Shown in pieces: positions 1,517 through 34,071 of a stretch of DNA of 38,171 nt. Positions within the stretch are counted from its first letter, which is position 1; each line of letters begins with the position of its first letter. This DNA comes from a virus, in IMG/VR virus record IMGVR_UViG_3300034069_001889, positions 77,723 through 115,893 of that record; one strand, 5' to 3'. The position numbers and the translations under genes were made by a program. The notes under the pieces are model-generated. The model was not told the origin of the DNA. It saw only the letters and a program-made list of their open reading frames with translations, and made no database searches.

Positions 1517-4500
1517 TTATTTTTTAAACGACGCGGCGAGTTTTTGCTGCATCGTCGTCAGCAAGTTAATTTGCGTTTCAAGCGACTTGGCCATTTGAGC
1601 AAGCGATTCCATCTGTTGCGCAGTTAGCGGCCCCGCGACGCCCGCTAGACCCGCGGCTTCCACTCCCGAAGATTGTTTTGCCAGTTCCGCCGCCGATTGG
1701 TTGGCCGACATGAAGGCGTCTAGATCAGTTGTGTACTTGCCGAGATTTGAGTTTTTCTTCCCCCCGTTCGCCCCGGCCGCGTTACGAACGTCTTTGAGAG
1801 TGCGTTCAATTTGCTCGTCCGAAATCTTTTCTCCACGGAGAAGAGCACGGCCGGCCTGCTCGCCCGCTTTGTCTCCGTCGGCAAAAGCCGCGATGGCTCG
1901 CATGGCGTTGGTGTTTTGATGCTCAACCAACCCAAGAACAGTGTCGGATGAGATGAGCTGACGGGCGTCATCGACCAGCCGGTCACGTGCACCCTCGGCG
2001 CGTTTGGAATACATTGCCCCGGCTTTGGACAAGATGCGCGACAAACCCTCCGTATCGGATGCGTCGTGGATCTCGTTCTCGGCTTTATAAAAATTACCAG
2101 ACTTGGCCGAGGCTTTGATGCGGGCGTAAACATCTTTACCGTATCCGCCGGCCATGTAGGTTTCCATACTGAATTTATCACCGACGACCAGTTTGCCGAG
2201 GTCCGCGACCGAGACATCCTTTTTGCCAGCCAGAGCTTTTAAGGCCTTAGATCCCTGAACGGCGCCCATCTGCTTGTCGACCTCTTCGTCCGACACCTGC
2301 ATGCTTCGGCGGGCTTCGACAATTCCATTAGCCTGCGTGGCGCTGATGGCCACGACCTTGCCGTTTTCGTCACCAATCTTAACGTACTGGTCACCGGAAG
2401 CTTTCGAGGCCTCCGCCAGCTGCTTGTCATTCTCAAAACGATCAACGCGAACACCATTGATCGAATCTTTGCCTTTGGCCGCGCGCAGGAAATCGCCAGC
2501 CGCAGATCCTCTGGTCCCGCCAAACGAACGGCCGACAGCATCGTAAAACGAATCGGCTTTTCCATCGGAGGCGTCGATGACGTCTCCACCGGCCAACCGT
2601 CCCGCCACTTTATCCGCAATCTTTGCGCGCTCGGCATCCGACACGTTTCCGCCGGCTGCTTGCACGGCTCGATCGGTCTCCTGGTTCATGCGGTCTTGCA
2701 TGTACGCCTGAGCACCCGTGACTGTCTTGGCGTTCACGTAGCGCGCGTCCATCCCGGCACCGAAGAAACGGTCCCGCAGGCCGATCGAAATATTTTCGAC
2801 GGCCTCGGCGGTGCGGTTGTTGATCCCGGAGATCACTTCGCCGATTGGATTCGACACCGCCCGCGTGAACATGTTTTTAAAAACTTTAGGCCCTAAATAA
2901 TCGTCGCGCGCCGCTTCGAGGTTTTGCTGAACGACCATGGCGTTCACTTGCGTCTGCTGCTGCTCTTTGAACTTTTGCGGATCCATCGTGAGCATGCCGA
3001 CGTCGGTCTTAATCTGCTCCATGCTGACGCCCTGGCGGCGCGATTCGGCCATGAAGATGTCTTTGAGGTCACCTCCGAATGCCCCCTGAAGCGTCCGCGC
3101 GGTCGACATCCGCTGCGCGATCCCAAACATCTGCATTTCCATCGGACTCATCTTCGAGATCATGTCTTCTTGATGCGCCTGGAACTTAAACATGTTGGCG
3201 GGGTTGCTCATGGTGCCCGCGGCCCCCGCCATGATGCTCATGGAATCGCCGGACATCATCCGACCCACCATGTTTGGATCAAGGCTGCCCGTGGCCGGGT
3301 TGTAGGCGGCCATCATTGCGCCACGTCCCTGGAGCGTCTGGAAACTCGACAACGCGCTCGCCGTCATTTGCTGCGCAAGCCCGAGCTCGCCGCCCGCCTG
3401 GGCCACGGTCTCTCGCGAGATCGCGCCGGAATTGAGCATAGAGCGCACCATCGCGGTGTTTTGCTGATTGACCTCGAAACCACGCTGCATCGAAATTCCG
3501 GTGCCGCGGAACATCTCCGCGCCGGTTTGACCAACGGCCATCATCTCCATGCCCGTTCGACCCGACATCCGCCCCGTGGCTTCAGACCCAAGGATCATCG
3601 ACTGCTGCGTGCTGGCATCGGTTACGCCCATGTCGCGCAAACCGCGAATGGTCTCCATGCCCTCTTTCAGCGAGGTGTGCAACGTCGAGCTCACGGTCTT
3701 GACTGTGGCGACCAGGTCCTTAAACTTTTTCCCAAAGTCTTCGGCGTCGCGGGTGCCCGAGAACAGATCCATCTGCATCCCGGTTTCCATGATCTGTTTG
3801 TAGTCCGTGGTGTTCAGGCGATTGTCGTTCATCTCCTGGCTGAGGATGTTTGAAGCGATCGTGCCACGGTCTCGGCGGTTAAATCCCCGGCCCGTCAATG
3901 GGTCAACGTCAGAGCCTTGGTAGGCTCGGAACGACCCTGCGCTGAGCGCGGATTGAATTCCGATGTTTTCCATACCGCGCGAAATGCCCGCGCCCACGAT
4001 CGCACCACCGATGGGACCACCAACGAACGCACCGCCGATGAATCCACCGATGCCGGCACCCATTCCTGCACCAAACAGCGCGCCACCGAGGGCTGACCCC
4101 GCGGCAGTACCTAGAGCCCCGCCGGCGAGACTTCCGCCAAGCTGCGCGGCAGCACCCACCACCGCGGCCGTACGCCCGCCCACGCGGTCTGCAAACGACC
4201 GCGTCGAGTAATTGATGTACTCGCTGTAGGACATGTTTGGCGGAATGACGTCGCGTGAACCCGGTGCCATGAACTGGGCCGCCGCAATTCCGCCCACGCC
4301 AAATCCTGCGGCAAGACCCGCTTGACCAAGCGTTTGCTGAATTTGGAACATGCCGAAGTGGGGCTGCATCGCGATCGCCGGCGGCGTGAAGCTCACCGGT
4401 GCGACCTGGCCGCCAAAGTCGGCATAGCTTCCGCCCATCACCGGCGTGCCGAAGTTTCCACGGCCCCCGGCCATGACGTTCATCATGCCGATGTTCATGG

Positions 4501-17564: not shown

Positions 17565-17983
17565 AGAAAACGTACGAAATTGATACGGATGACCTAACCG
17601 AGCCGGAAGAGCAGCTGGCGTTTCTAATCAACGAGTGCGTGATCTTCTGCAACAACGGCTGGTGGGACGAGAAGTGGCCAAAAGACGCCATCTCGCTCCA
17701 CGTCAACTGCAACGACATCTTCGCGTGGGGTTGCGCCGACTCCGAAGATATTCGCTGTGGCGAGCTCAAAGATCTCACCGACCTCTATCTCAAAGACGAG
17801 GCGTGGGGTGCGGCCGTATGGTGCATTAAAAAGCGTCGCCAGATGCCCCAAGCCCCCGTGGCAAAAGACATGCGGGAGGCCGGCTACAATCTCGAAGAGT
17901 TGATTGCTACCCCTATTGACGAGATTGCGGAAAAACCCCTAGACTCAAACGTGAACGAGAAGCACCTGAGCCCGGAGACGTGA
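17561..17983 (+). CDS. Hypothetical phage protein (140 aa)
   Basis: ATGA overlap with the previous stop; VNCNDIFAWGCAD motif. Confidence 0.7.
   Translation: MKKTYEIDTDDLTEPEEQLAFLINECVIFCNNGWWDEKWPKDAISLHVNCNDIFAWGCADSEDIRCGELKDLTDLYLKDEAWGAAVWCIKKRRQMPQAPVAKDMREAGYNLEELIATPIDEIAEKPLDSNVNEKHLSPET
17916..17945 (+). promoter_or_regulatory. Sigma70-like promoter for the ncRNA at 17951
   Basis: TTGACG-18 nt-TAGACT, ending 5 nt before the first base of the terminal stem. Confidence 0.6.
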
Positions 17984-18082
17984 GTGCTTGCGCCTCACCG
18001 AGGGTAGCGATGGACACGGCTTGGCTTTGACCCTTGCACGCCCTGGAGCCTGAGCCGGAAATAGCGCGCCGGCCTCGTTCAC
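17951..18082 (+). ncRNA. Unknown structured ncRNA E (132 nt)
   Basis: Terminal stem GTGAACGAG/CTCGTTCAC. Hairpin AAGCAC/GTGCTT, helix AGGGT/ACCCT, and a 3' hairpin GCCGG-aaatagcgcg-CCGGC abutting the terminal stem. Own promoter and T8 tail. Confidence 0.7.
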
Positions 18083-18638: not shown

Positions 18639-18719
18639 GCGGAAACCGTAGCACCGGGTTTTCCAAACGCAAGATTATTTAGATCCGACGCGAGAAGTCT
18701 GATACTACTTTTACTTCAT

Positions 18720-18859
18720 GGGTGCGCCAGCGCGCTATCTTTAGGGTCGGTCGGACGAGGCTGAGTTAAGGTAAAAGTTTTTACCTTAACCGGGTTGCAC
18801 GGTAAAACACGTGATGGGTAGCGAGCGGACCAAGATTCTTTAGAACGCCTGGCGTACCC
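18720..18859 (+). ncRNA. Unknown structured ncRNA F (140 nt)
   Basis: 11-bp terminal stem GGGTGCGCCAG/CTGGCGTACCC; its G-U pair favours the + strand. Internal CGCTATC/GGTAGCG helix and a 12-bp hairpin at 18765-18790. Intergenic. Confidence 0.55.
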
Positions 18860-18906
18860 GCCTTACTTTCTCGTTTTCTAGAAACAATTCACTACATTTG
18901 ATCTGA

Positions 18907-18940
18907 GGCGATAGTTTCTAACTAACTAGAAACTATCGCC
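18907..18940. repeat. 14-bp perfect inverted repeat in AT-rich intergenic DNA
   Basis: GGCGATAGTTTCTA-actaac-TAGAAACTATCGCC. Confidence 0.85.
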
Positions 18941-26673: not shown

Positions 26674-27174
26674 GCGTCCAAAATGGTTTTACGTGCCTGT
26701 CGTGAATAAAAATGAATCTTATGGCGGGTACGCGGACAGCGAAGAATGTTTGAAGACGCACGGCTCCGCCCAGCTCGTCTGCGACCACCTGTTTCTCGAC
26801 GAAGTGCAAGACCTCAAGGACGTTTTAGAAAGTGAGCGGAAAGCCTCTGAAGGGCTCTACGCCGTCCTGACGCACGCGACCGAACTCGGCTACCTCGGTG
26901 AAGGCTCAACGGCGGGGTGGGTCCAGGAGATGCTGACAAATTACGAAGCCGTAAAGTACAAACGCTGATGGAAGATTTTTGTGGCGTCGTTATAACGGTG
27001 ACAATGGGTTTTGCCATAATTTTTGGCACCTACAAGTGCGTGAACGCACCTTCGACGGCGGAATTGATTTACGCCGACTGTGTTGCGGACGGGGGCAAGC
27101 GGCTCGATTGCCGCAAAGAAGCTTTGAAAATCCAGCAACACACGCCCTGCACCGGGTGTCGGACGTCTGACTAA
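26666..27174 (+). CDS. Two hypothetical proteins (26666-26968; 26968-27174, membrane-anchored and Cys-rich)
   Basis: Overlapping start/stop codons. Confidence 0.6.
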
Positions 27175-27386
27175 CCAACGCTCGTGCGGTTGGCCGCGAG
27201 CACCCGCACGCGTTCTTTGAGCGCCTTGATGTCGTCTTCCATTTTTTCGGTCTGCTTCCGGTGAGCGACGTGCTCTTTACGCCTGATGCCGACCGTGCTC
27301 AAGGCTTTGCCGATCTCAAAATTCCGGGCGTGCCAGGTGATGATCGCCCCCAAAATTACGCCCGCGCCTACGTATAATGCGTCCAT
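27171..27386 (-). CDS. Small TM plus coiled-coil protein (71 aa)
   Basis: MDALYVGAGVILGAIITW...MEDDIKALKERVRVL. Confidence 0.55.
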   Translation of the reverse strand: MDALYVGAGVILGAIITWHARNFEIGKALSTVGIRRKEHVAHRKQTEKMEDDIKALKERVRVLAANRTSVG

Positions 27387-27426
27387 AGGGCTAGATTTTA
27401 CATAGATTCTCAAGTAGTGTCCATAA

Positions 27427-27606
27427 TGACTGATGAGGCGTGGAAGCGGGGTGCTGGCTTAAAAACCGGTCGCTCACGATCCCTGGAACACGCACTGTAG
27501 CCGTGATAGGTCCTCCGGGGTGTCGTTACCACGAAGAAGCTTTAGGGCGGGACGGTAAGGAAGCGGCGCAAACGGAATTGCCAGAGTCGCGCCTGGCCAT
27601 TGGTCA
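27427..27606 (+). ncRNA. Unknown structured ncRNA A (180 nt)
   Basis: Terminal stem TGACTGATG/CATTGGTCA (2 G-U). 5' GCGTggAAGC motif and 3' hairpin GCCAG-agtcgcgc-CTGGC. Ends 5 nt before tRNA-Met. Confidence 0.7.
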
Positions 27607-27611
27607 TTTGA

Positions 27612-27682
27612 CGCGGGTTGGAGGAGTGGTCCCTTGCTAGGTTCATACCCTGGAGACGTCGGTTCGAACCCGGCACCCGCTA
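27612..27682 (+). tRNA. tRNA-Met(CAU), initiator-like
   Basis: Cloverleaf; anticodon arm CTAGG-ttCATac-CCTGG; GGTTCGAAC T loop; C1:U72 mismatch; no encoded CCA. Confidence 0.88.
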
Positions 27683-27699
27683 CTTTGATTTGTTTTTAT

Positions 27700-28075
27700 G
27701 GGGGCATACTGGTTTCGACACGGGACCAAGACGCTCGCCTGCACGCCGGGGATGAATTCGAACCCCGTTATCAAACGAGTTCACATGTACATGGCGAATC
27801 GCAAGATTTCTCCATGAAAAACGCTGCCTAGACAGCAGTGATTTTTCGGGGCACGCAGCCTGGCAACAGAACGCGCAACAAGAGGAAACGCAGCCGCACC
27901 TCTTTAAATTAGGCGGAACCCGGTTGCCAGACCGGGACTAACAAAACTGGATGGTGGAGAGCGTACGAAGCTTAGCCGTTTCGTACCCCATGTAGGTTCC
28001 GTCTCACGGAACTAAGCGTGTAGAGGGTGAGTGATCAAAGTTTTGTGGACGAGGGTTCGATCCCCTCTGCCTCCA
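27700..28075 (+). ncRNA. ssrA: tmRNA
   Basis: 5' GGGGGCATACTGGTTTCGAC; 3' GGACGAGGGTTCGATCCCCTCTGCCTCCA with a G3-U70 pair. Tag frame 27793-27831 reads GESQDFSMKNAA-stop. Confidence 0.93.
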
Positions 28076-28093
28076 CTTTTTGTTTTTGTTTGT

Positions 28094-28169
28094 TGGTCGG
28101 TACCATAATTGGCAATGGGCCAAACTGTTAATTTGGAATATGGAAGTTCGAGGCTTCCCCGGCCAACCA
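28094..28169 (+). tRNA. tRNA-Asn(GUU)
   Basis: CCAAA-ctGTTaa-TTTGG; acceptor TGGTCGG/CCGGCCA; ACCA end. Confidence 0.9.
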
Positions 28170-28176
28170 TTTTTTT

Positions 28177-28248
28177 GGGTCTGTAGTTTAAACGGTAGAA
28201 TGCCGGATTCCAAATCCGGTGATCGAGGTTCGAATCCTTGCGGGCCCG
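28177..28248 (+). tRNA. tRNA-Trp(CCA)
   Basis: CCGGA-ttCCAaa-TCCGG; GGTTCGAATCC; G discriminator. Confidence 0.9.
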
Positions 28249-28258
28249 CAGTTTTTAT

Positions 28259-28347
28259 GGAAAGTTGGCAGAGTGGTCTATCGCGCCCGCCTTGAAAGCG
28301 GGAGGACCTTGAAAGAGGTTCCGTGGGTTCGAATCCTACACTTTCCT
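28259..28347 (+). tRNA. tRNA-Ser(UGA)
   Basis: CCCGC-ctTGAaa-GCGGG; long variable arm; acceptor GGAAAGT/ACTTTCC. Confidence 0.92.
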
Positions 28348-28369
28348 CAGTTTTATAGAAGGAGCAACT

Positions 28370-28540
28370 ATGGAAAATAGAAAAGTCATTCAGCTCACCA
28401 TTTCGGCTCCAAACGTCAATGACCCCGACCGAGTGTTTCCGATTCTGTTTGCTTTATGCGATGACGGCACCATCTGGTGGTCAAACGTCAGCAATGAATC
28501 TGAAAATTGGCAGCTGTACAAACAAGTTCCTACATCTTAA
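28370..28540 (+). CDS. Small hypothetical protein (56 aa) inside the tRNA cluster, not in ORF track
   Basis: AAGGAG RBS; MENRKVIQLTISAPN...LFALCDDGTIWW...W. Confidence 0.7.
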   Translation: MENRKVIQLTISAPNVNDPDRVFPILFALCDDGTIWWSNVSNESENWQLYKQVPTS

Positions 28541-28553
28541 ATCTCTTTCTTAC

Positions 28554-28630
28554 GCGGTTATAGTTCAGAGGCCTAGAACGCTCGCCTGTCACGCGAGAGG
28601 TCACGAGTTCGAATCTCGTTAGCCGCGCCA
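28554..28630 (+). tRNA. tRNA-Asp(GUC)
   Basis: CTCGC-ctGTCac-GCGAG; GCCA end. Confidence 0.93.
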
Positions 28631-28637
28631 TTTTTAT

Positions 28638-28901
28638 TTGCTTATGACCGTCACCTACACCAAATCCGAAGCCCTCCTAATCAAGTACTTTCGCGACCTC
28701 CTCCAAGATTTGTGGGATGAGGGTATGAATACCAAGAAAGACCCCGAGGACCGTCTCGCCGCGCTCGTGATAAAAATCAATGGCGCACTGACCCTAGCCA
28801 ACGTCATGGCGGACGAGACAGAATTTGGGAAATTCATCACGTACCTCAAGGAGACTCACAATGATAACGATCAAAGACGAAAGCCAACGGGTACCGATTA
28901 A
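28638..28901 (+). CDS. Hypothetical protein (about 85 aa)
   Basis: ORF between tRNA-Asp and rtcB, overlapping the rtcB start. Confidence 0.55.
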   Translation: MLMTVTYTKSEALLIKYFRDLLQDLWDEGMNTKKDPEDRLAALVIKINGALTLANVMADETEFGKFITYLKETHNDNDQRRKPTGTD

Positions 28902-30042
28902 ACTCTGGGCCGACGAGGTCGAGCCCCAGGCCATGGCCCAGCTCAAGAACACGGCCGGCCTTCCCTTCGTGTTCAAACACGTCGCCGCCATGCCGGACGT
29001 GCACTTTGGCCTTGGCGCCACCGTGGGCTCCGTCGTCGCGACCAAGGGCGCGGTCGTACCCGCGGCGGTGGGGGTCGACATCGGATGCGGCATGATGGCG
29101 GTTCAGCTCGACGCGGACGTGCGCATCGCGCGCGATAAGGCCGCGGTCATCCGCCACTCGATCGAGCGGTCCATACCCGTAGGATTCGACCAGCACCGGA
29201 CAAATCAAGACGAAGAGATGGGACTGCTTCACCTGACCTGGGCCGACATTGCGTCCGAGAATGCCGACAAACGTCTTTATGAAAAAGCAGCGCGGCAGAT
29301 GGGCACGCTCGGGGGCGGCAATCACTTTATTGAGCTCTGCGAGGACACGAACGGTGGCTTCTGGGTCATGCTCCACTCCGGGTCCCGCGGCGTCGGGAAC
29401 CGACTCGCCCGCTGGCACATGAACGAGGCTAAAGGCCTCATGCGGAAGATGTTCATCGAGCTGCCGGACCCCGACCTCGCCTACTTTGCCGAACAAACCA
29501 AAGAGTACGATGCCTACATGACGGACCTTTATTGGGCGCAAAATTACGCGAAGCGAAATCGCGAGGTCATGATGGAGCGGGTCCTCAAAGACATCTCCCA
29601 CGCCTTCGGCCTCGGCGGCGCCCCCATTCCAAAGCTCCGCGAGATCAACTGCCACCACAACTACGCCGAGACGGAAAACCACTACGGCGAGAACGTGCTG
29701 GTCACCCGAAAAGGCGCCGTACGGGCCCGGGAGGGCGATTACGGCATCATTCCCGGCTCCATGGGGACGCGGTCTTACATCGTGAAGGGAAAGGGCAACT
29801 TCCAGAGCTTCTGCTCCTGCAGCCACGGCGCGGGGCGTAAGATGTCCCGGAACCAAGCGCGCGCCCAATACACGGTTGAGGATCTGGCCAAGCAGACCGA
29901 AGGGGTCAACTGTCGGAAAGACGAGGGGGTTCTCGACGAGCTGCCCTCGGCGTACAAAGACATCGACACCGTCATGGCGAATCAGCAGGACCTGGTCGAG
30001 GTCGTGGCCGAGCTCAAGCAATTCGTTTGCATTAAGGGCTAA
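28861..30042 (+). CDS. rtcB: RtcB RNA ligase (3'-phosphate/5'-OH)
   Basis: MPDVH, VGVDIGCG, GTLGGGNHFIE, HSGSRG, CHHNY, RKGA, IPGSMG, SHGAGR, AYKDI; AAGGAG RBS. Confidence 0.97.
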   Translation: MITIKDESQRVPIKLWADEVEPQAMAQLKNTAGLPFVFKHVAAMPDVHFGLGATVGSVVATKGAVVPAAVGVDIGCGMMAVQLDADVRIARDKAAVIRHSIERSIPVGFDQHRTNQDEEMGLLHLTWADIASENADKRLYEKAARQMGTLGGGNHFIELCEDTNGGFWVMLHSGSRGVGNRLARWHMNEAKGLMRKMFIELPDPDLAYFAEQTKEYDAYMTDLYWAQNYAKRNREVMMERVLKDISHAFGLGGAPIPKLREINCHHNYAETENHYGENVLVTRKGAVRAREGDYGIIPGSMGTRSYIVKGKGNFQSFCSCSHGAGRKMSRNQARAQYTVEDLAKQTEGVNCRKDEGVLDELPSAYKDIDTVMANQQDLVEVVAELKQFVCIKG

Positions 30043-30047
30043 CGAAG

Positions 30048-30084
30048 TTAGGGAATGTTAGTCAGACGGGCTAACATTCCCTAA
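30048..30084. repeat. 14-bp perfect inverted repeat between rtcB and ncRNA B
   Basis: TTAGGGAATGTTAG-9nt-CTAACATTCCCTAA; no T tail. Confidence 0.85.
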
Positions 30085-30107
30085 TATTATCTGATAGACC
30101 TAATATC

Positions 30108-30335
30108 GAACGTGATTGCGTATAAGCTGTGGCAATTGCTAATGCCCGCACAATGCGACTTCGAGGACCCTCACTGGCAAGGTTGTGTCTGAAAAGCGGG
30201 GCCACTAGGATACGTAGGTCGGTTAGGACCGAAAGAGTACTGAGACGAATATAATGGTGAATTGACACCTGCCCTAACGGGTATTCGCGAGTCGGGAAAT
30301 CTCTTTCACAACCGGAGTCGCGCCCGGTCACGTTC
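30108..30335 (+). ncRNA. Unknown structured ncRNA B (228 nt)
   Basis: Terminal stem GAACGTG/CACGTTC. 5' GCGTatAAGC motif and 3' hairpin ACCGG-agtcgcgc-CCGGT. Ends 5 nt before tRNA-Phe. Confidence 0.75.
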
Positions 30336-30340
30336 TTTAT

Positions 30341-30416
30341 GGACAGGTAGCTCAGTTGGTAGAGCACCGGTTTGAAGCGCCGGGTGTGGTAGGTTCAACT
30401 CCTACCCTGTCCACCA
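30341..30416 (+). tRNA. tRNA-Phe(GAA)
   Basis: CCGGT-ttGAAgc-GCCGG; acceptor GGACAGG/CCTGTCC; ACCA end. Confidence 0.92.
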
Positions 30417-30428
30417 TTTTACATTTCT

Positions 30429-30525
30429 GGAACGTGGCTCGTGTCCAAGAGGCTCCGGCCGGTGCGCACCGGTACAGGATGAGGGATTAAGTCGGCGCCG
30501 CCCAACCCGTAAACGGCCACGTTCT
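30429..30525 (+). ncRNA. Unknown structured ncRNA C (97 nt)
   Basis: Terminal stem GGAACGTGGC/GCCACGTTCT; internal CCGGT-gcgc-ACCGG hairpin; long T run after. Confidence 0.65.
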
Positions 30526-30589
30526 TTTTTTTCTTACTAATTAATTAAATTACTTAGACAGAGTCGGACTGATTTGCTTAATTAATTAC

Positions 30590-30814
30590 GAACGTGAAGC
30601 GTGAAGCAAGTCCCCGACGTAGAAGCGTTGATGCTGATCTAAGCCCGGATACGTACAAAGACACGAAGGGTAAAATCAGCGGAGTGGAGAAGGTTGCTAA
30701 TGCGCGCACTCTGACCTTGCACGCATGGACAGAGTTCAAAAGGCCGCTTGATGCCGGTTCGAAACGGCTAGTACAGTGGAATAATGAAAGCCAGGGTTGC
30801 GCCTGGTCACGTTC
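30590..30814 (+). ncRNA. Unknown structured ncRNA D (225 nt)
   Basis: Terminal stem GAACGTG/CACGTTC. 5' GCGTgAAGC motif and 3' hairpin GCCAG-ggttgcgc-CTGGT. Ends 11 nt before tRNA-Tyr. Confidence 0.75.
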
Positions 30815-30825
30815 AACTTTTTTAC

Positions 30826-30911
30826 GCGTTGTTGCGGGGAATTGGTAACCCAGCGGATTGTAAATCCGTGCCCTCACGGGTCTGGTGGTTCGAGTCCATC
30901 ACAACGCACCA
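30826..30911 (+). tRNA. tRNA-Tyr(GUA)
   Basis: GCGGA-ttGTAaa-TCCGT; long variable arm; ACCA end. Confidence 0.92.
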
Positions 30912-30988: not shown

Positions 30989-31203
30989 TTTAGTAATTTA
31001 CTAGGTGCATCAACTAACGTTTCGGCACAGATAGTTACTGTTTTAGTAATTATCTGGATTTTTCTTTTTAGTTGCACCCCCAAATCTTTTAGTTGAGCTT
31101 TAGTTCCAAGCGCAATGTGGTGCTTACTGCGCCCGGCCCGATCAAATCTTTCTTGGCGGGAAGGTCATCAGCGGGTCGGGTGTTTTCATATTGAGGGGTC
31201 TGT

Positions 31204-33529
31204 GTGAAACTCGTCTGCTACCACAAAGAGTGGGATTGGATCGCGGTTCACGAAGGTGCTTACGCGGTTGAAGTCGACGACGGGGTGTTTTGGTTTTGGT
31301 CGCACTACCTGACATTTCCCGGTGGCTCGTACATGCTCACCGATAAGGATTTCTACAAAAACTGGGTCCTGATCGGTATTCTGGATAAGGAGGAAAACAA
31401 TGAAAACATTTGATCTGGTTCGCACCGAGGACGTGAGCGGCGTTTCAGGAATTGGCACTGTGGCTCAAGGCGTCGAGTTTGACGATGGCTCGTGCGTGCT
31501 CCGCTGGCTCACCGAGTTCAAAAGCACGGCGTTTTATAACTCCGTCCGGGACTTGCTTCACATCCACGAACACGGCGGCCGCACAAAAGTCGTCTTTCAC
31601 GAGGAGATCAAATGACGTCGCGCGACTTTTGCTACTGGCTCCAAGGGTTTTTCGAACTCGCCCACTCTGGCCCCGTTCCGCCCGAACCGCAGTCCCGCTA
31701 CCATCTGTACGACTACCAAGTCGACATGATCCGCAACCACCTCGCCATGGTGTTCAAGCACGAGATCGACCCTAGCATGGGCAGCGCTATTCACCGCGAC
31801 CAGCTTCAGCAAATCCACCATGGTTATGTTCAAGCTCAAGAGATCGAAAACAAAGCCGAAGCTTGCTTGGACAGATCCGGGAAGTTTAGCCCCACCGCCA
31901 AGATGAACTGCTGACACCACCCGTCTAGTTTTACCATTTGCCTTGATCCTCCATTTTTGATCCGTAATTCTATGGACCAACCAATGGAGGATCATCAACA
32001 TGGATCTCATCGAATTCCCCTGCCCCGACTGCACGACCGGCCTCGGCCAGGTCCCCCTTTTCGACATTTTCAAACCCACGTGCCCGACCTGCAACGGCAA
32101 ACGTAAAGTTCTCGTCAAACGCGAAGACATCATCAAGCTCGGGGGCAAATAGGCTTATGAGAAAGCCGAAGCGCCGTTACGCCATCGAACACGTCACCAT
32201 CAACAAAACGACCGCGGAATTGGTCATCGTCCTTCCCGTGCAGCTGATGTTTGAGCCGGAAGCCTTCACGGTTCCGGGCGTGGGCGAAGGAGCGCCGGAA
32301 ATCGAATACAGCCTTCAGGTCGGGACAAACGAGCCCGACGGCTATCTGGTGCCCGTCGAGACGTTTGCTAATCGAGACATTTACGTCTTTTGTAAGACCT
32401 CGCGGCTCAAGAAAATCGCCGACATCCTGGGGCCGCTATGATGCGGTGGCTTTTTGGCGACCCCTACCGCTTGATCAGCGATGGTCACGGCAAGTGGGCG
32501 GTCCAGAACACGAGGTGGGGTCTCTTTGGCGACAGCTACTGGGACTTTCAAAACGAATTCTGGACCCTGTACCCTCGTGAAAAATGTTGGACGGACGTAG
32601 AAACCGCCACGCTTTGGGCCAAGAGGTTCAACGCATGACGAGTCCAAAGCAAAAAGCTAGCGCCTACGTCTACGTGATCTCGCGGATTCACAAAGCGCCG
32701 ACCCCAAATATTACCGAGATCCCGAACCTCGGCGTGCACCGAACGCTCAAACGCGGGTTGTCGCACTACAAGGCCGTCTACGAGGATCGTCGGTCGCGGA
32801 TCACGAGTTCTTATGGCGAACAGGATAAGGTTGTCACCGACCATCCCTGCACGGTCCTCGCTGAGTTTTACACGAGCGACCAAGAAAATGTGCGTTTCGA
32901 ACGCTGGACGGTTTACTAAGTATGAAACCACTCACAGCCAAAAAACTGGGGAAGCAGAGCAATTCGGTGGTCTACCTTGCCAAGTACGACATGATTGTCG
33001 AAGTGTGGTGCCACCAAAGGTTGAAATTCATGCTGCACGATCAGGACAGATGGTACATCAAGGGGCCGCTCGGCATGAACGGTCAGATCACTTTAAAAGA
33101 ACTCAATAGCGCGAGTGCTATCAAAATAGGAGTAATTCACTAATGTACAGCAAATACGCACCTCCCGTTTCGGAAATCAAGAAATGGATCAGCGCCCTTC
33201 GTTCGGGCAAATTCCAACAAACTCAAGGAGTGCTTCAAGACAGGGATGGCTACTGCTGCCTTGGCGTAGCGTGCCAAATTTTCTCGCCCAAACACCAGCT
33301 CGAAAGAAACGGGCAATATCTTCGCGGCAGTATGCCAAGTGATCAGCGTCACGCGCCAACCTGGCTCAAACGCGTCGCCAATGATTTCGCTCGCGCCACT
33401 AAAATTGTTCACGAGGATGGCGATAACGAGGTCACAGGCCTCATCGACATGAACGACGAGGAAAACTTCTCGTTCGACGAGATCGCCGACATGCTGCAGC
33501 TGGTCTACGTCGAAAAGGCGTTCGCGTGA
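31204..33529 (+). CDS. Train of small phage hypothetical proteins (31204-31413, 31400-31615, 31612-31914, 32000-32152 CxxC zinc finger, 32157-32441, 32438-32638, 32635-32919, 32922-33143, 33143-33529)
   Basis: Overlapping start/stop codons and RBSs. Motifs I recall from uncharacterised phage proteins: DVSGVSGIGTVAQGVEF, DFCYWLQGFFE, WISALRSG...CCLGV. Confidence 0.7.
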
Positions 33530-34071
33530 AAGAGTTCGTGGGCTTTCCCAAGATTCCCCGGCTTTCGCGCGACATCATCGTCACCGAAAAGATCGACGGC
33601 ACGAATGCGCAAATCTACATCAGCGAGGACGGCACGGAGTTCTTAACCGGATCCCGCAACCGCTGGATCACGCCGGACAAAGACAATCACGGATTTTCAA
33701 AGTGGGCCCACGAGCACAAGGATGAGCTCATGAAGCTTGGCCCCGGGCATCACTTTGGTGAGTGGTACGGTCAAGGGATCAATTGCGGCTACGGGCTCAA
33801 AGAAAAGCGTTTTGCGCTCTTTAACGTCAAGCGGTGGGAAGACAATAGCGTCCGCCCGGCTTGCTGCGAGATTGTGCCTATTCTGTACAAAGGCATCTTT
33901 GATCTAGTAGTCATTGAATACTGTTTGAAAAAGCTCGCTTTCGACGGCAGCAGCGCCGCGCCAGGTTTCATGGACCCCGAGGGCGTGATGGTTTTCCACA
34001 TCGCGGCGAATCACTATTTCAAGAAAACCATTAAACACGACGATGAGAGAAAGTCGCAGGTGAACGCGTGA
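33526..34071 (+). CDS. ATP-dependent RNA ligase family protein (Rnl2-like nucleotidyltransferase core)
   Basis: Motif I TEKIDGTNA, SRNR, FGEWYG, FALFN, motif IV PEGVMV, motif V YFKK. Confidence 0.85.
   Translation: MKEFVGFPKIPRLSRDIIVTEKIDGTNAQIYISEDGTEFLTGSRNRWITPDKDNHGFSKWAHEHKDELMKLGPGHHFGEWYGQGINCGYGLKEKRFALFNVKRWEDNSVRPACCEIVPILYKGIFDLVVIEYCLKKLAFDGSSAAPGFMDPEGVMVFHIAANHYFKKTIKHDDERKSQVNA

Follow-up and report, generated by a model that had tools for sequence, protein, structure and literature searches.

The closest described systems are stable RNAs from phage transfer RNA (tRNA) clusters. RNA1 and RNA2 of phage T5 (AY543070.1, annotated as 'tRNA-like stable RNA with unknown functions') and rnaC of phage T4 (NC_000866.4) are non-coding RNAs (ncRNAs) of 125-144 nucleotides (nt). 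T4 rnaC, or species 1, is detected on Northern blots and has no assigned function (PMC9697503). T5 RNA1 combines a tRNA-Leu D-arm (GGAATTGGTAGA), a long insert replacing the anticodon arm, and a T-arm. The same build is found in RNAs A, B, and D, three elements within a 38,171-nt stretch of viral DNA (the window) that forms the last 38 kilobases (kb) of the 115,893-nt virus record IMGVR_UViG_3300034069_001889, whose estimated completeness is 74%. Homologues indicate that A, B, and D are almost certainly genuine and belong to a phage RNA family that is widespread and has a tRNA-like frame; a divergent element, E, is probably in the same family.

The frame of the family comprises, in order, a closing stem (P1), a 2-nt linker (mostly CG), a D-like arm (P2), a free middle, an A, and a T-like arm (P4) stacked directly on P1. 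P1 most often has 9 base pairs (bp) and can reach 25; its inner G-C is nearly invariant, and positions 8 and 9 are paired in 84% and 63% of members, respectively. P2 has 5 bp and a GAA-AGC-AGA loop with an optional stem inserted after the C, while P4 has 5 bp and the 8-nt loop NGT(A/C)GCGN. The middle, 23-294 nt long and unrelated between members, replaces the anticodon and variable arms. About 18 unpaired bases are near-invariant. The window members are listed below, with E-values from R1, a model built from 59 short members, none of them from the window.

27425..27608, plus strand: RNA A, whole; 11-bp P1 (27425-27435 with 27598-27608); top-scoring window member, R1 E=1.3e-5
27438..27493, plus strand: D-like arm P2 of A, GCGTG 27438-27442 with CACGC 27489-27493; P2 loop GAAGC...TGGAA, broken by an insert at about 27448-27485
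27494..27579, plus strand: variable middle of A, 86 nt, occupying the anticodon and variable arm position
27580..27597, plus strand: T-like arm P4 of A, GCCAG-AGTCGCGC-CTGGC
30108..30335, plus strand: RNA B; P1 of 7 bp; P2 GCGTA 30118-30122 with TACGT 30211-30215 (compensated variant); 88-nt P2 loop with insert; middle of 95 nt; P4 at 30311-30328
30590..30814, plus strand: RNA D; P1 of 7 bp; P2 5' strand at 30599-30603, partner at 30703-30707 (minimum free energy (MFE) fold) or CACGC at 30720-30724 (model); P4 at 30790-30807, loop GGTTGCGC; R1 E=0.023
17951..18082, plus strand: RNA E, divergent stand-alone element, probably a member; P1 of 9 bp; T-like arm GCCGG/CCGGC, whose 10-nt loop includes TAGCG, then T8; D-like arm poorly defined; R1 E=0.089, fourth in the window

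An earlier note, made from the letters of the window, had described A, B, and D by their coordinates, closing stems, GCGT-n1-2-AAGC motif, and 5-bp RGTYGCGC hairpins, all of which are exact on re-reading, as are the distances to tRNA-Met (27612; 5 nt), tRNA-Phe (30341; 5 nt), and tRNA-Tyr (30826; 11 nt). It had overlooked the D-like helix (GCGTG/CACGC; GCGTA/TACGT in B) and the second variable insert, inside the D-like loop. RGTYGCGC occurs 15 times in the 116-kb genome, and a perfect 5-bp stem surrounds only three of these words, those of A, B, and D. The full frame appears three times in the real genome and is absent from all 200 dinucleotide-shuffled genomes, where the hairpin by itself turns up at a mean of 0.21 per genome. 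The window's best four matches to R1 are A, D, B, and E, of which A alone is significant (E of 0.02-0.09 for the others). A further ground for counting B and D as members is that each folds freely into the family structure: the free MFE structure of B is that fold, and R1 matches the 3' arm of B with E=0.086.

Homologues with covarying stems, for which the earlier note had advised a covariance-model search, were found, and all three helices covary. In the first homologues, the 5' GCGTG has its pairing partner in a CACGC further downstream, and short forms carry the 9-nt loop GAAAGCAGA without an insert. A pattern for the 3' hairpin recovered five true members among 13 viral matches and about 11 among 56 metagenome matches. 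IMG/VR searches with the short arm and with the T-like arm gave at least 120 matches each, nearly all of those listed being full members. By descriptor there are at least 149 distinct members, and the true number is larger. Other patterns were less productive: two loose viral ones gave chance matches, L129 being the single true member in about 240 loci; none of the four matches to the exact B/D 3' pattern was a member; and a GTDB-wide scan with the A-type arm gave 53 matches, none a member by descriptor.

Most carrier phages have one copy, with tandem copies at locus L612. Cultured carriers include phages of Pseudomonas, Ochrobactrum, and Synechococcus and, for a second subtype (subtype II), phages of Caulobacter, Komagataeibacter, and Acidovorax; named examples are Pseudomonas phages Persinger, PotUPM1, and Orimi01, Ochrobactrum phage POI1126, and Caulobacter phage DMCA. 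In bacterial genomes of one class, a true member was present in one of 401, and the E. coli genomes searched had none; thus no core host RNA was found among the genomes searched.

Two-sided changes occur at eight of nine P1 pairs, three of five P4 pairs, and all five P2 pairs. Paired cells reach 96-97%, compared with 31-43% in slid controls, each arm being judged for covariation in the set picked on the other arm. In P1, G-U outnumbers A-C by 15:1, which fixes the strand. Positions 1 and 8 of the T-like loop also covary (A-C, G-U, A-A). Whole-element folding z-scores are weak (-0.2, -1.9, and -2.0 for A, B, and D), and the reality of the elements rests on homologues, not on folding energy. Such weak scores would suit elements with no function as RNA, either decayed tRNA pseudogenes or hairpins at the DNA level, but compensatory change, near-invariant loops, strand asymmetry, and spread over unrelated phages largely refute this explanation, which is scarcely credible.

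Two structural details of the earlier note did not hold. It had paired the 5' GCGT with the GCGC of the 3' loop; that strand pairs instead in the D-like stem, where the variants GCGCT, GCACG, GTGTT, and GCATG are compensated, none of them being compensated in the loop. It had also assumed the canonical 7+5 bp geometry, but only B and D have 7 bp, A has 11 bp, and the family mostly has 8-9 bp. No covarying pseudoknot was found. Kissing between GC and GC of the two loops was considered for the main type and dropped, as it cannot be shown there: the T-loop GC is invariant, and about five D-loop exceptions are uncompensated. At L570:5985-6126, the T-like loop sequence GGGTTAGCGC stands where the D-like loop is expected.

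The family follows the cloverleaf order of acceptor, D, middle, and T, and the proposal of a tRNA-like frame that is no tRNA was, if anything, understated, since the frame has a D-arm and a match to tRNA-Leu. ARAGORN and Rfam call no member as tRNA. Bacterial tRNA-Leu(GAG) has the D-arm GTG-GAATTGGTAGA-CACGC and the T-arm GCCGG-TTCGAGT-CCGGC-C; the family has GTG-GAAAGCAGA-CACGC and GCCGG-AGTAGCGC-CCGGC-C. More generally, bacterial and phage class II tRNA-Leu (RF00005) shares with the family the arm order, the D-arm GTGGAA...AGACACGC, the GCCGG/CCGGC T-stem, and the terminal G-C of the closing stem. Unlike tRNA-Leu, the family lacks an anticodon arm (7-nt loop), a 7-nt TTCRA loop, and an encoded CCA, and it has two extra D-stem pairs and a closing stem of 8-9 bp rather than 7. 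The D-loop of a phage tRNA-Leu(UAA) equals the family loop but for one base. A pattern written in family letters only matched 11 of 61 Pseudomonadota genomes, and all 11 matches were of tRNA-Leu type (GAG or CAA anticodon; ARAGORN check on three loci), with none in the reversed control. Judged from these sequence likenesses, the family quite probably descends from class II tRNA-Leu.

Subtype II bears on how the two loops work. In all seven of its members, the D-loop GA(A/T)GGA is paired with the T-loop (T/A)ATCAAGC, and three of the members were found via one arm and then showed the matching other arm. Subtype II retains the GG and UC of the tRNA elbow and looks intermediate. The joint change of both loops argues that they function together and supports a tRNA-like elbow.

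The tRNA-Leu letters that are kept (the D-arm G13, A14, and A15 equivalents, the T-stem, and the G7-C66 pair) would also suit an aminoacylated tRNA mimic, in which CCA is added after trimming and leucyl-tRNA synthetase (LeuRS) charges the RNA for non-ribosomal use or competition. Bacterial LeuRS largely ignores the anticodon. Such a mimic is nevertheless very unlikely: members have neither an encoded CCA nor a conserved discriminator base, their closing stem runs to 8-9 bp and up to 25 bp, and the T-loop is rebuilt.

Against this background, the family can be set beside other described RNAs. T5 RNA1, T5 RNA2, and T4 rnaC have the canonical TTCRA T-loop, whereas the family has an 8-nt loop, a 5-bp D-stem, and an insertion site in the D-loop. 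R1, run on the T4 and T5 tRNA clusters, gave no match to their RNAs (best E=1.3). In its predicted fold, the family is built like T5 RNA1 and T4 species 1 but is not detectably homologous to them. T4 rnaC (L680:1409-1547) contains GAGTAGCGT twice, equal to the family T-like loop word but within stems, and the word GAGTAGCG also occurs in the loop inserts of L612 and L301; both coincidences are possibly due to chance.

YrlA Y RNAs are tRNA mimics that also occur in phages, sometimes near rtcB, and act with Ro60/Rsr (PMC4201824). Their arm order is permuted, with T preceding D, their loops are canonical, a GNCGAAN0-1G motif stands at the 5' end, and Ro60 is encoded within 4 kb (PMC4201824); none of these features is seen in the family. 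GNCGAAN0-1G is absent from the 5' ends of A, B, and D, and no Ro60/TROVE protein was found in this 74% complete genome. Four of 49 carrier genomes (G417, G425, G426, and G441) encode a TROVE-like protein of about 440-455 amino acids, a weak match, roughly 10-31 kb from the member. For transfer-messenger RNA (tmRNA; RF00023), the sole match in the window is at 27700-28078, and A, B, D, and E have none. Allo-tRNAs and irregular 8/4 and 9/3 tRNAs have a lengthened acceptor; some are found in phages, and some have been proposed to be non-translating (PMC5389517). All of these have a 12-bp branch and an anticodon, whereas the family has an 8-9/5 arrangement (13-14 bp) and no anticodon arm. Proteo-phage-1 (RF03044) is a separate RNA, located about 210 nt upstream of a member in one prophage record (L455); its best score in this genome, outside the window, is 13.1 bits, and the gathering cut-off stands at 42 bits. 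A likeness to hammerhead, ZTP, twister, and group I motifs was dropped for their wrong topology and for want of an Rfam score.

Rfam 15, applied at gathering and E-value thresholds to the window and 57 homologue loci, placed no family on any member, in agreement with the earlier note, which had recognised no known family; its broader proposal of a covarying, uncatalogued phage ncRNA family with variable cargo is likewise borne out by the homologues and Rfam. By sequence and predicted structure, the family falls outside tRNA, YrlA, tmRNA, allo-tRNA, and Proteo-phage-1. Its general kind, a tRNA-shaped stable phage RNA, is already known. No description was found in the largely open-access literature searched, literal motifs included. 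The catalogue of Fremin et al. 2023 (PMC10690425) comprises 8,495 candidate structured RNAs from IMG/VR and may include one arm of the family or its entire frame.

The inserts vary far more than the frame. No relative was found for 148 of 181 inserts, the middle of A among them, and 126 of 149 members are free of open reading frames (ORFs) by our own gene finder. The 38-nt loop insert of A is exactly replaced by 88 other letters in a related phage contig (run X3), a swap that rests on one contig from another study at an 80% likeness setting. The minimal member (L365:901-978) has 78 nt, with a middle of 23 nt. Conservation of the frame, set against inserts as short as 23 nt, hints that the frame may be the active part; the 23-nt middle, the many unique inserts, the exact swap, and the mostly single copies tentatively speak for the frame over the cargo. 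A different division of labour, the one closest to the earlier note, would make the frame a chassis that excises, folds, and protects an active small RNA (decoy, sponge, or antisense) and serves as a recombination junction for insert swaps. This genome carries four members with differing inserts, and insert subfamilies of eight, five, and four members each have motifs of their own. Inserts contain the T-arm word GTTCGA more often than expected (12 versus 3.2), T-arm words occur in eight of 116 homologue middles, and some middles are tRNA fragments (L468 and L551). One closing stem can also hold unrelated RNAs, as in element C and the L640 slot described below. Weighing against a chassis are the sufficiency of a 23-nt middle, the uniqueness of most inserts, and loops so nearly invariant that they would exceed the needs of a passive clamp. 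Exact words shared between inserts and E. coli ribosomal RNA (rRNA) are at shuffle level (window elements against 16S, p about 0.13-0.39), and antisense matches in the own genome are limited to words of 11-14 nt, at chance level. The chassis explanation is rather unlikely.

Within RNA D, the loop insert contains a nested copy of the D-like arm at 30618-30653 (ACGTA-GAAGC...GGA-TACGT), which resembles P2 of B, and the word GGATACGTA is common to B and D, suggesting internal shuffling. The middle of D also has a T-arm-like hairpin, GCCG-GTTCGAAA-CGGC, at 30757-30773.

Genomic position is variable. A, B, and D lie inside a tRNA cluster like the T5 and T4 RNAs, whereas the family is mostly outside: 11 of 116 members have a tRNA no more than 500 nt away, in every case on the strand of the member, and several are spaced at 2-13 nt, in the manner of tRNA genes. 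Placement just before a tRNA is thus accurate for the three elements for which it was first remarked and is not a family trait. Other members follow an integrase, sit between terL and the next gene or in a moron, or open early operons (PotUPM1 and Orimi01), and E is 9 kb from the nearest tRNA. In POI1126, a tRNA begins 3 nt 3' of the member; two tRNA genes flanking the member (L559:2751-2822 and 3154-3224) are unannotated in the record. In Orimi01, an annotated hypothetical protein (L558:2993-3226) overlaps the member and may be a mis-call.

About three quarters of members are co-oriented with flanking genes (97:26 upstream and 101:32 downstream, by the same gene finder). Co-orientation, the early-operon starts, and the lack of enrichment of own terminators (10 downstream-sense terminators versus 6-10 in controls) would fit a cis signal that yields no free RNA, such as a processing mark, a messenger RNA stabiliser, or a put-like antiterminator. 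Such a signal is improbable given the varied positions, the tandem copies in L612, and E, which stands alone before a T8 tract.

The earlier note had further suggested that the RNAs are substrates or partners of the neighbouring RtcB. A self-cleaving ribozyme, or an RNA that is cleaved and then ligated or circularised by RtcB, would account for the near-invariant unpaired bases; RtcB and a second RNA ligase are encoded nearby here, and at L541 and L280 a member lies beside a tRNA and RtcB. The partnership fails across the family, since RtcB is present in two of 49 carrier genomes (this one and one picked through RtcB) and at two of 115 member loci, and one of 59 RtcB loci has a member. The closest RtcB relatives (67-68%) have no such RNA nearby. 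With no Rfam ribozyme match and no covarying pseudoknot, this explanation is highly improbable. No enriched local ORF cluster was detected, and no phage protein partner was found locally or genome-wide in the carriers searched.

We tentatively favour the frame itself as a decoy or ligand acting in trans. The RNA would be transcribed together with neighbouring genes and excised by host tRNA-type processing; here, RNase P cutting of the next tRNA would free the 3' end. The product would persist as a stable non-translating RNA, its two conserved loops docking to give a rebuilt elbow and an L-like shape. With its tRNA-like shape, the frame might then serve as decoy or ligand of a host factor that recognises such shapes, for example a defence toxin directed at tRNAs, a sensor, or a translation factor, with the inserts perhaps mostly tolerated passengers. 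A more specific version, in which the elbow has been recoded through two loop pairs changing in step, so that the RNA has lost tRNA function and binds one conserved host target in hundreds or more of unrelated phages, is doubtful.

Several points weigh against the decoy or ligand reading and the proposed origin. The host target of the frame is putative, and its binding is a guess. Starting at the elbow, RNase P measures off a set length of a 7+5 bp stack (PMC4919913); the stack here is longer, at 13-14 bp, and the T-loop is rebuilt, which makes RNase P action uncertain. The main type lacks the tRNA core nucleotides U8, U48, and G18-G19 as well as the TTCRA loop, so tRNA-reading enzymes may fail to recognise the family, and CCA is neither encoded nor enriched. 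Of about 100 tRNAs, tRNA-Leu has the best R1 score, which falls short of significance (E=0.57), and the tRNA-Leu pattern is post hoc, having been written once the likeness was noticed. Conserved insert subfamilies, together with the mild structure of inserts (mean z -0.55), fit a payload role.

If that more specific version, with one conserved host target, is true, the family would be a common, general RNA-based device for counter-defence or host control, with two natural slots for added RNA domains. Annotation still gives no function for the stable tRNA-like RNAs of T4 and T5. The family offers a tractable way into that question: its frame is sharply delimited, its minimal member has 78 nt, its loops come in two types that co-vary, and several carriers grow in culture on laboratory hosts. 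It would also document the conversion of a tRNA into a non-coding RNA, subtype II looking like an intermediate. Since inserts of up to about 290 nt are tolerated, the frame could find use as a natural scaffold for expressing RNAs.

The island around A, B, and D contains eight tRNAs, a tmRNA, and RtcB; the presence of the last two, reported earlier, is confirmed by Rfam and PF01139. The DNA of the record is contained in plant-metagenome sequencing runs; no RNA run is among those listed, which speaks neither for nor against expression. A second RNA ligase is encoded at 33526-34071. The neighbours are as follows.

27612..27683, plus strand: tRNA-Met(CAT), directly 3' of A
27700..28078, plus strand: tmRNA, Rfam-confirmed neighbour outside the family
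28825..30042, plus strand: RtcB RNA ligase ORF (PF01139), a neighbour and no family-wide partner
30341..30416, plus strand: tRNA-Phe(GAA), 5 nt 3' of B
30429..30525, plus strand: element C, with a GAACGTG/CACGTTC closing stem as in B and D
30826..30911, plus strand: tRNA-Tyr(GTA), 11 nt 3' of D

Element C has no D-like arm, no T-like arm, and no R1 match, which places it outside the family; in it, the B/D closing stem surrounds an unrelated 80-nt RNA. Similarly, L640 has a different RNA inside the stem that encloses a family member in L564 and L625. The tag peptide of the phage tmRNA, GESQDFSMKNAA according to ARAGORN, looks unusual. A 13-bp AT-rich hairpin at 31028-31056, immediately 3' of tRNA-Gln, is the probable end of the tRNA transcript. 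On the minus strand, a sigma-70-like promoter (TGGACA-17-TAAAAT, 27395-27423) points away from A and overlaps the start of an 80-amino-acid ORF (27171-27413); sites of this kind occur at a counted frequency equal to chance. Lastly, element F (18719-18860) is a strongly folded ncRNA candidate (-63.6 kcal/mol) with an 11-bp closing stem and no match to the family model, followed on its 3' side by a 14-bp inverted repeat at about 18907-18940.

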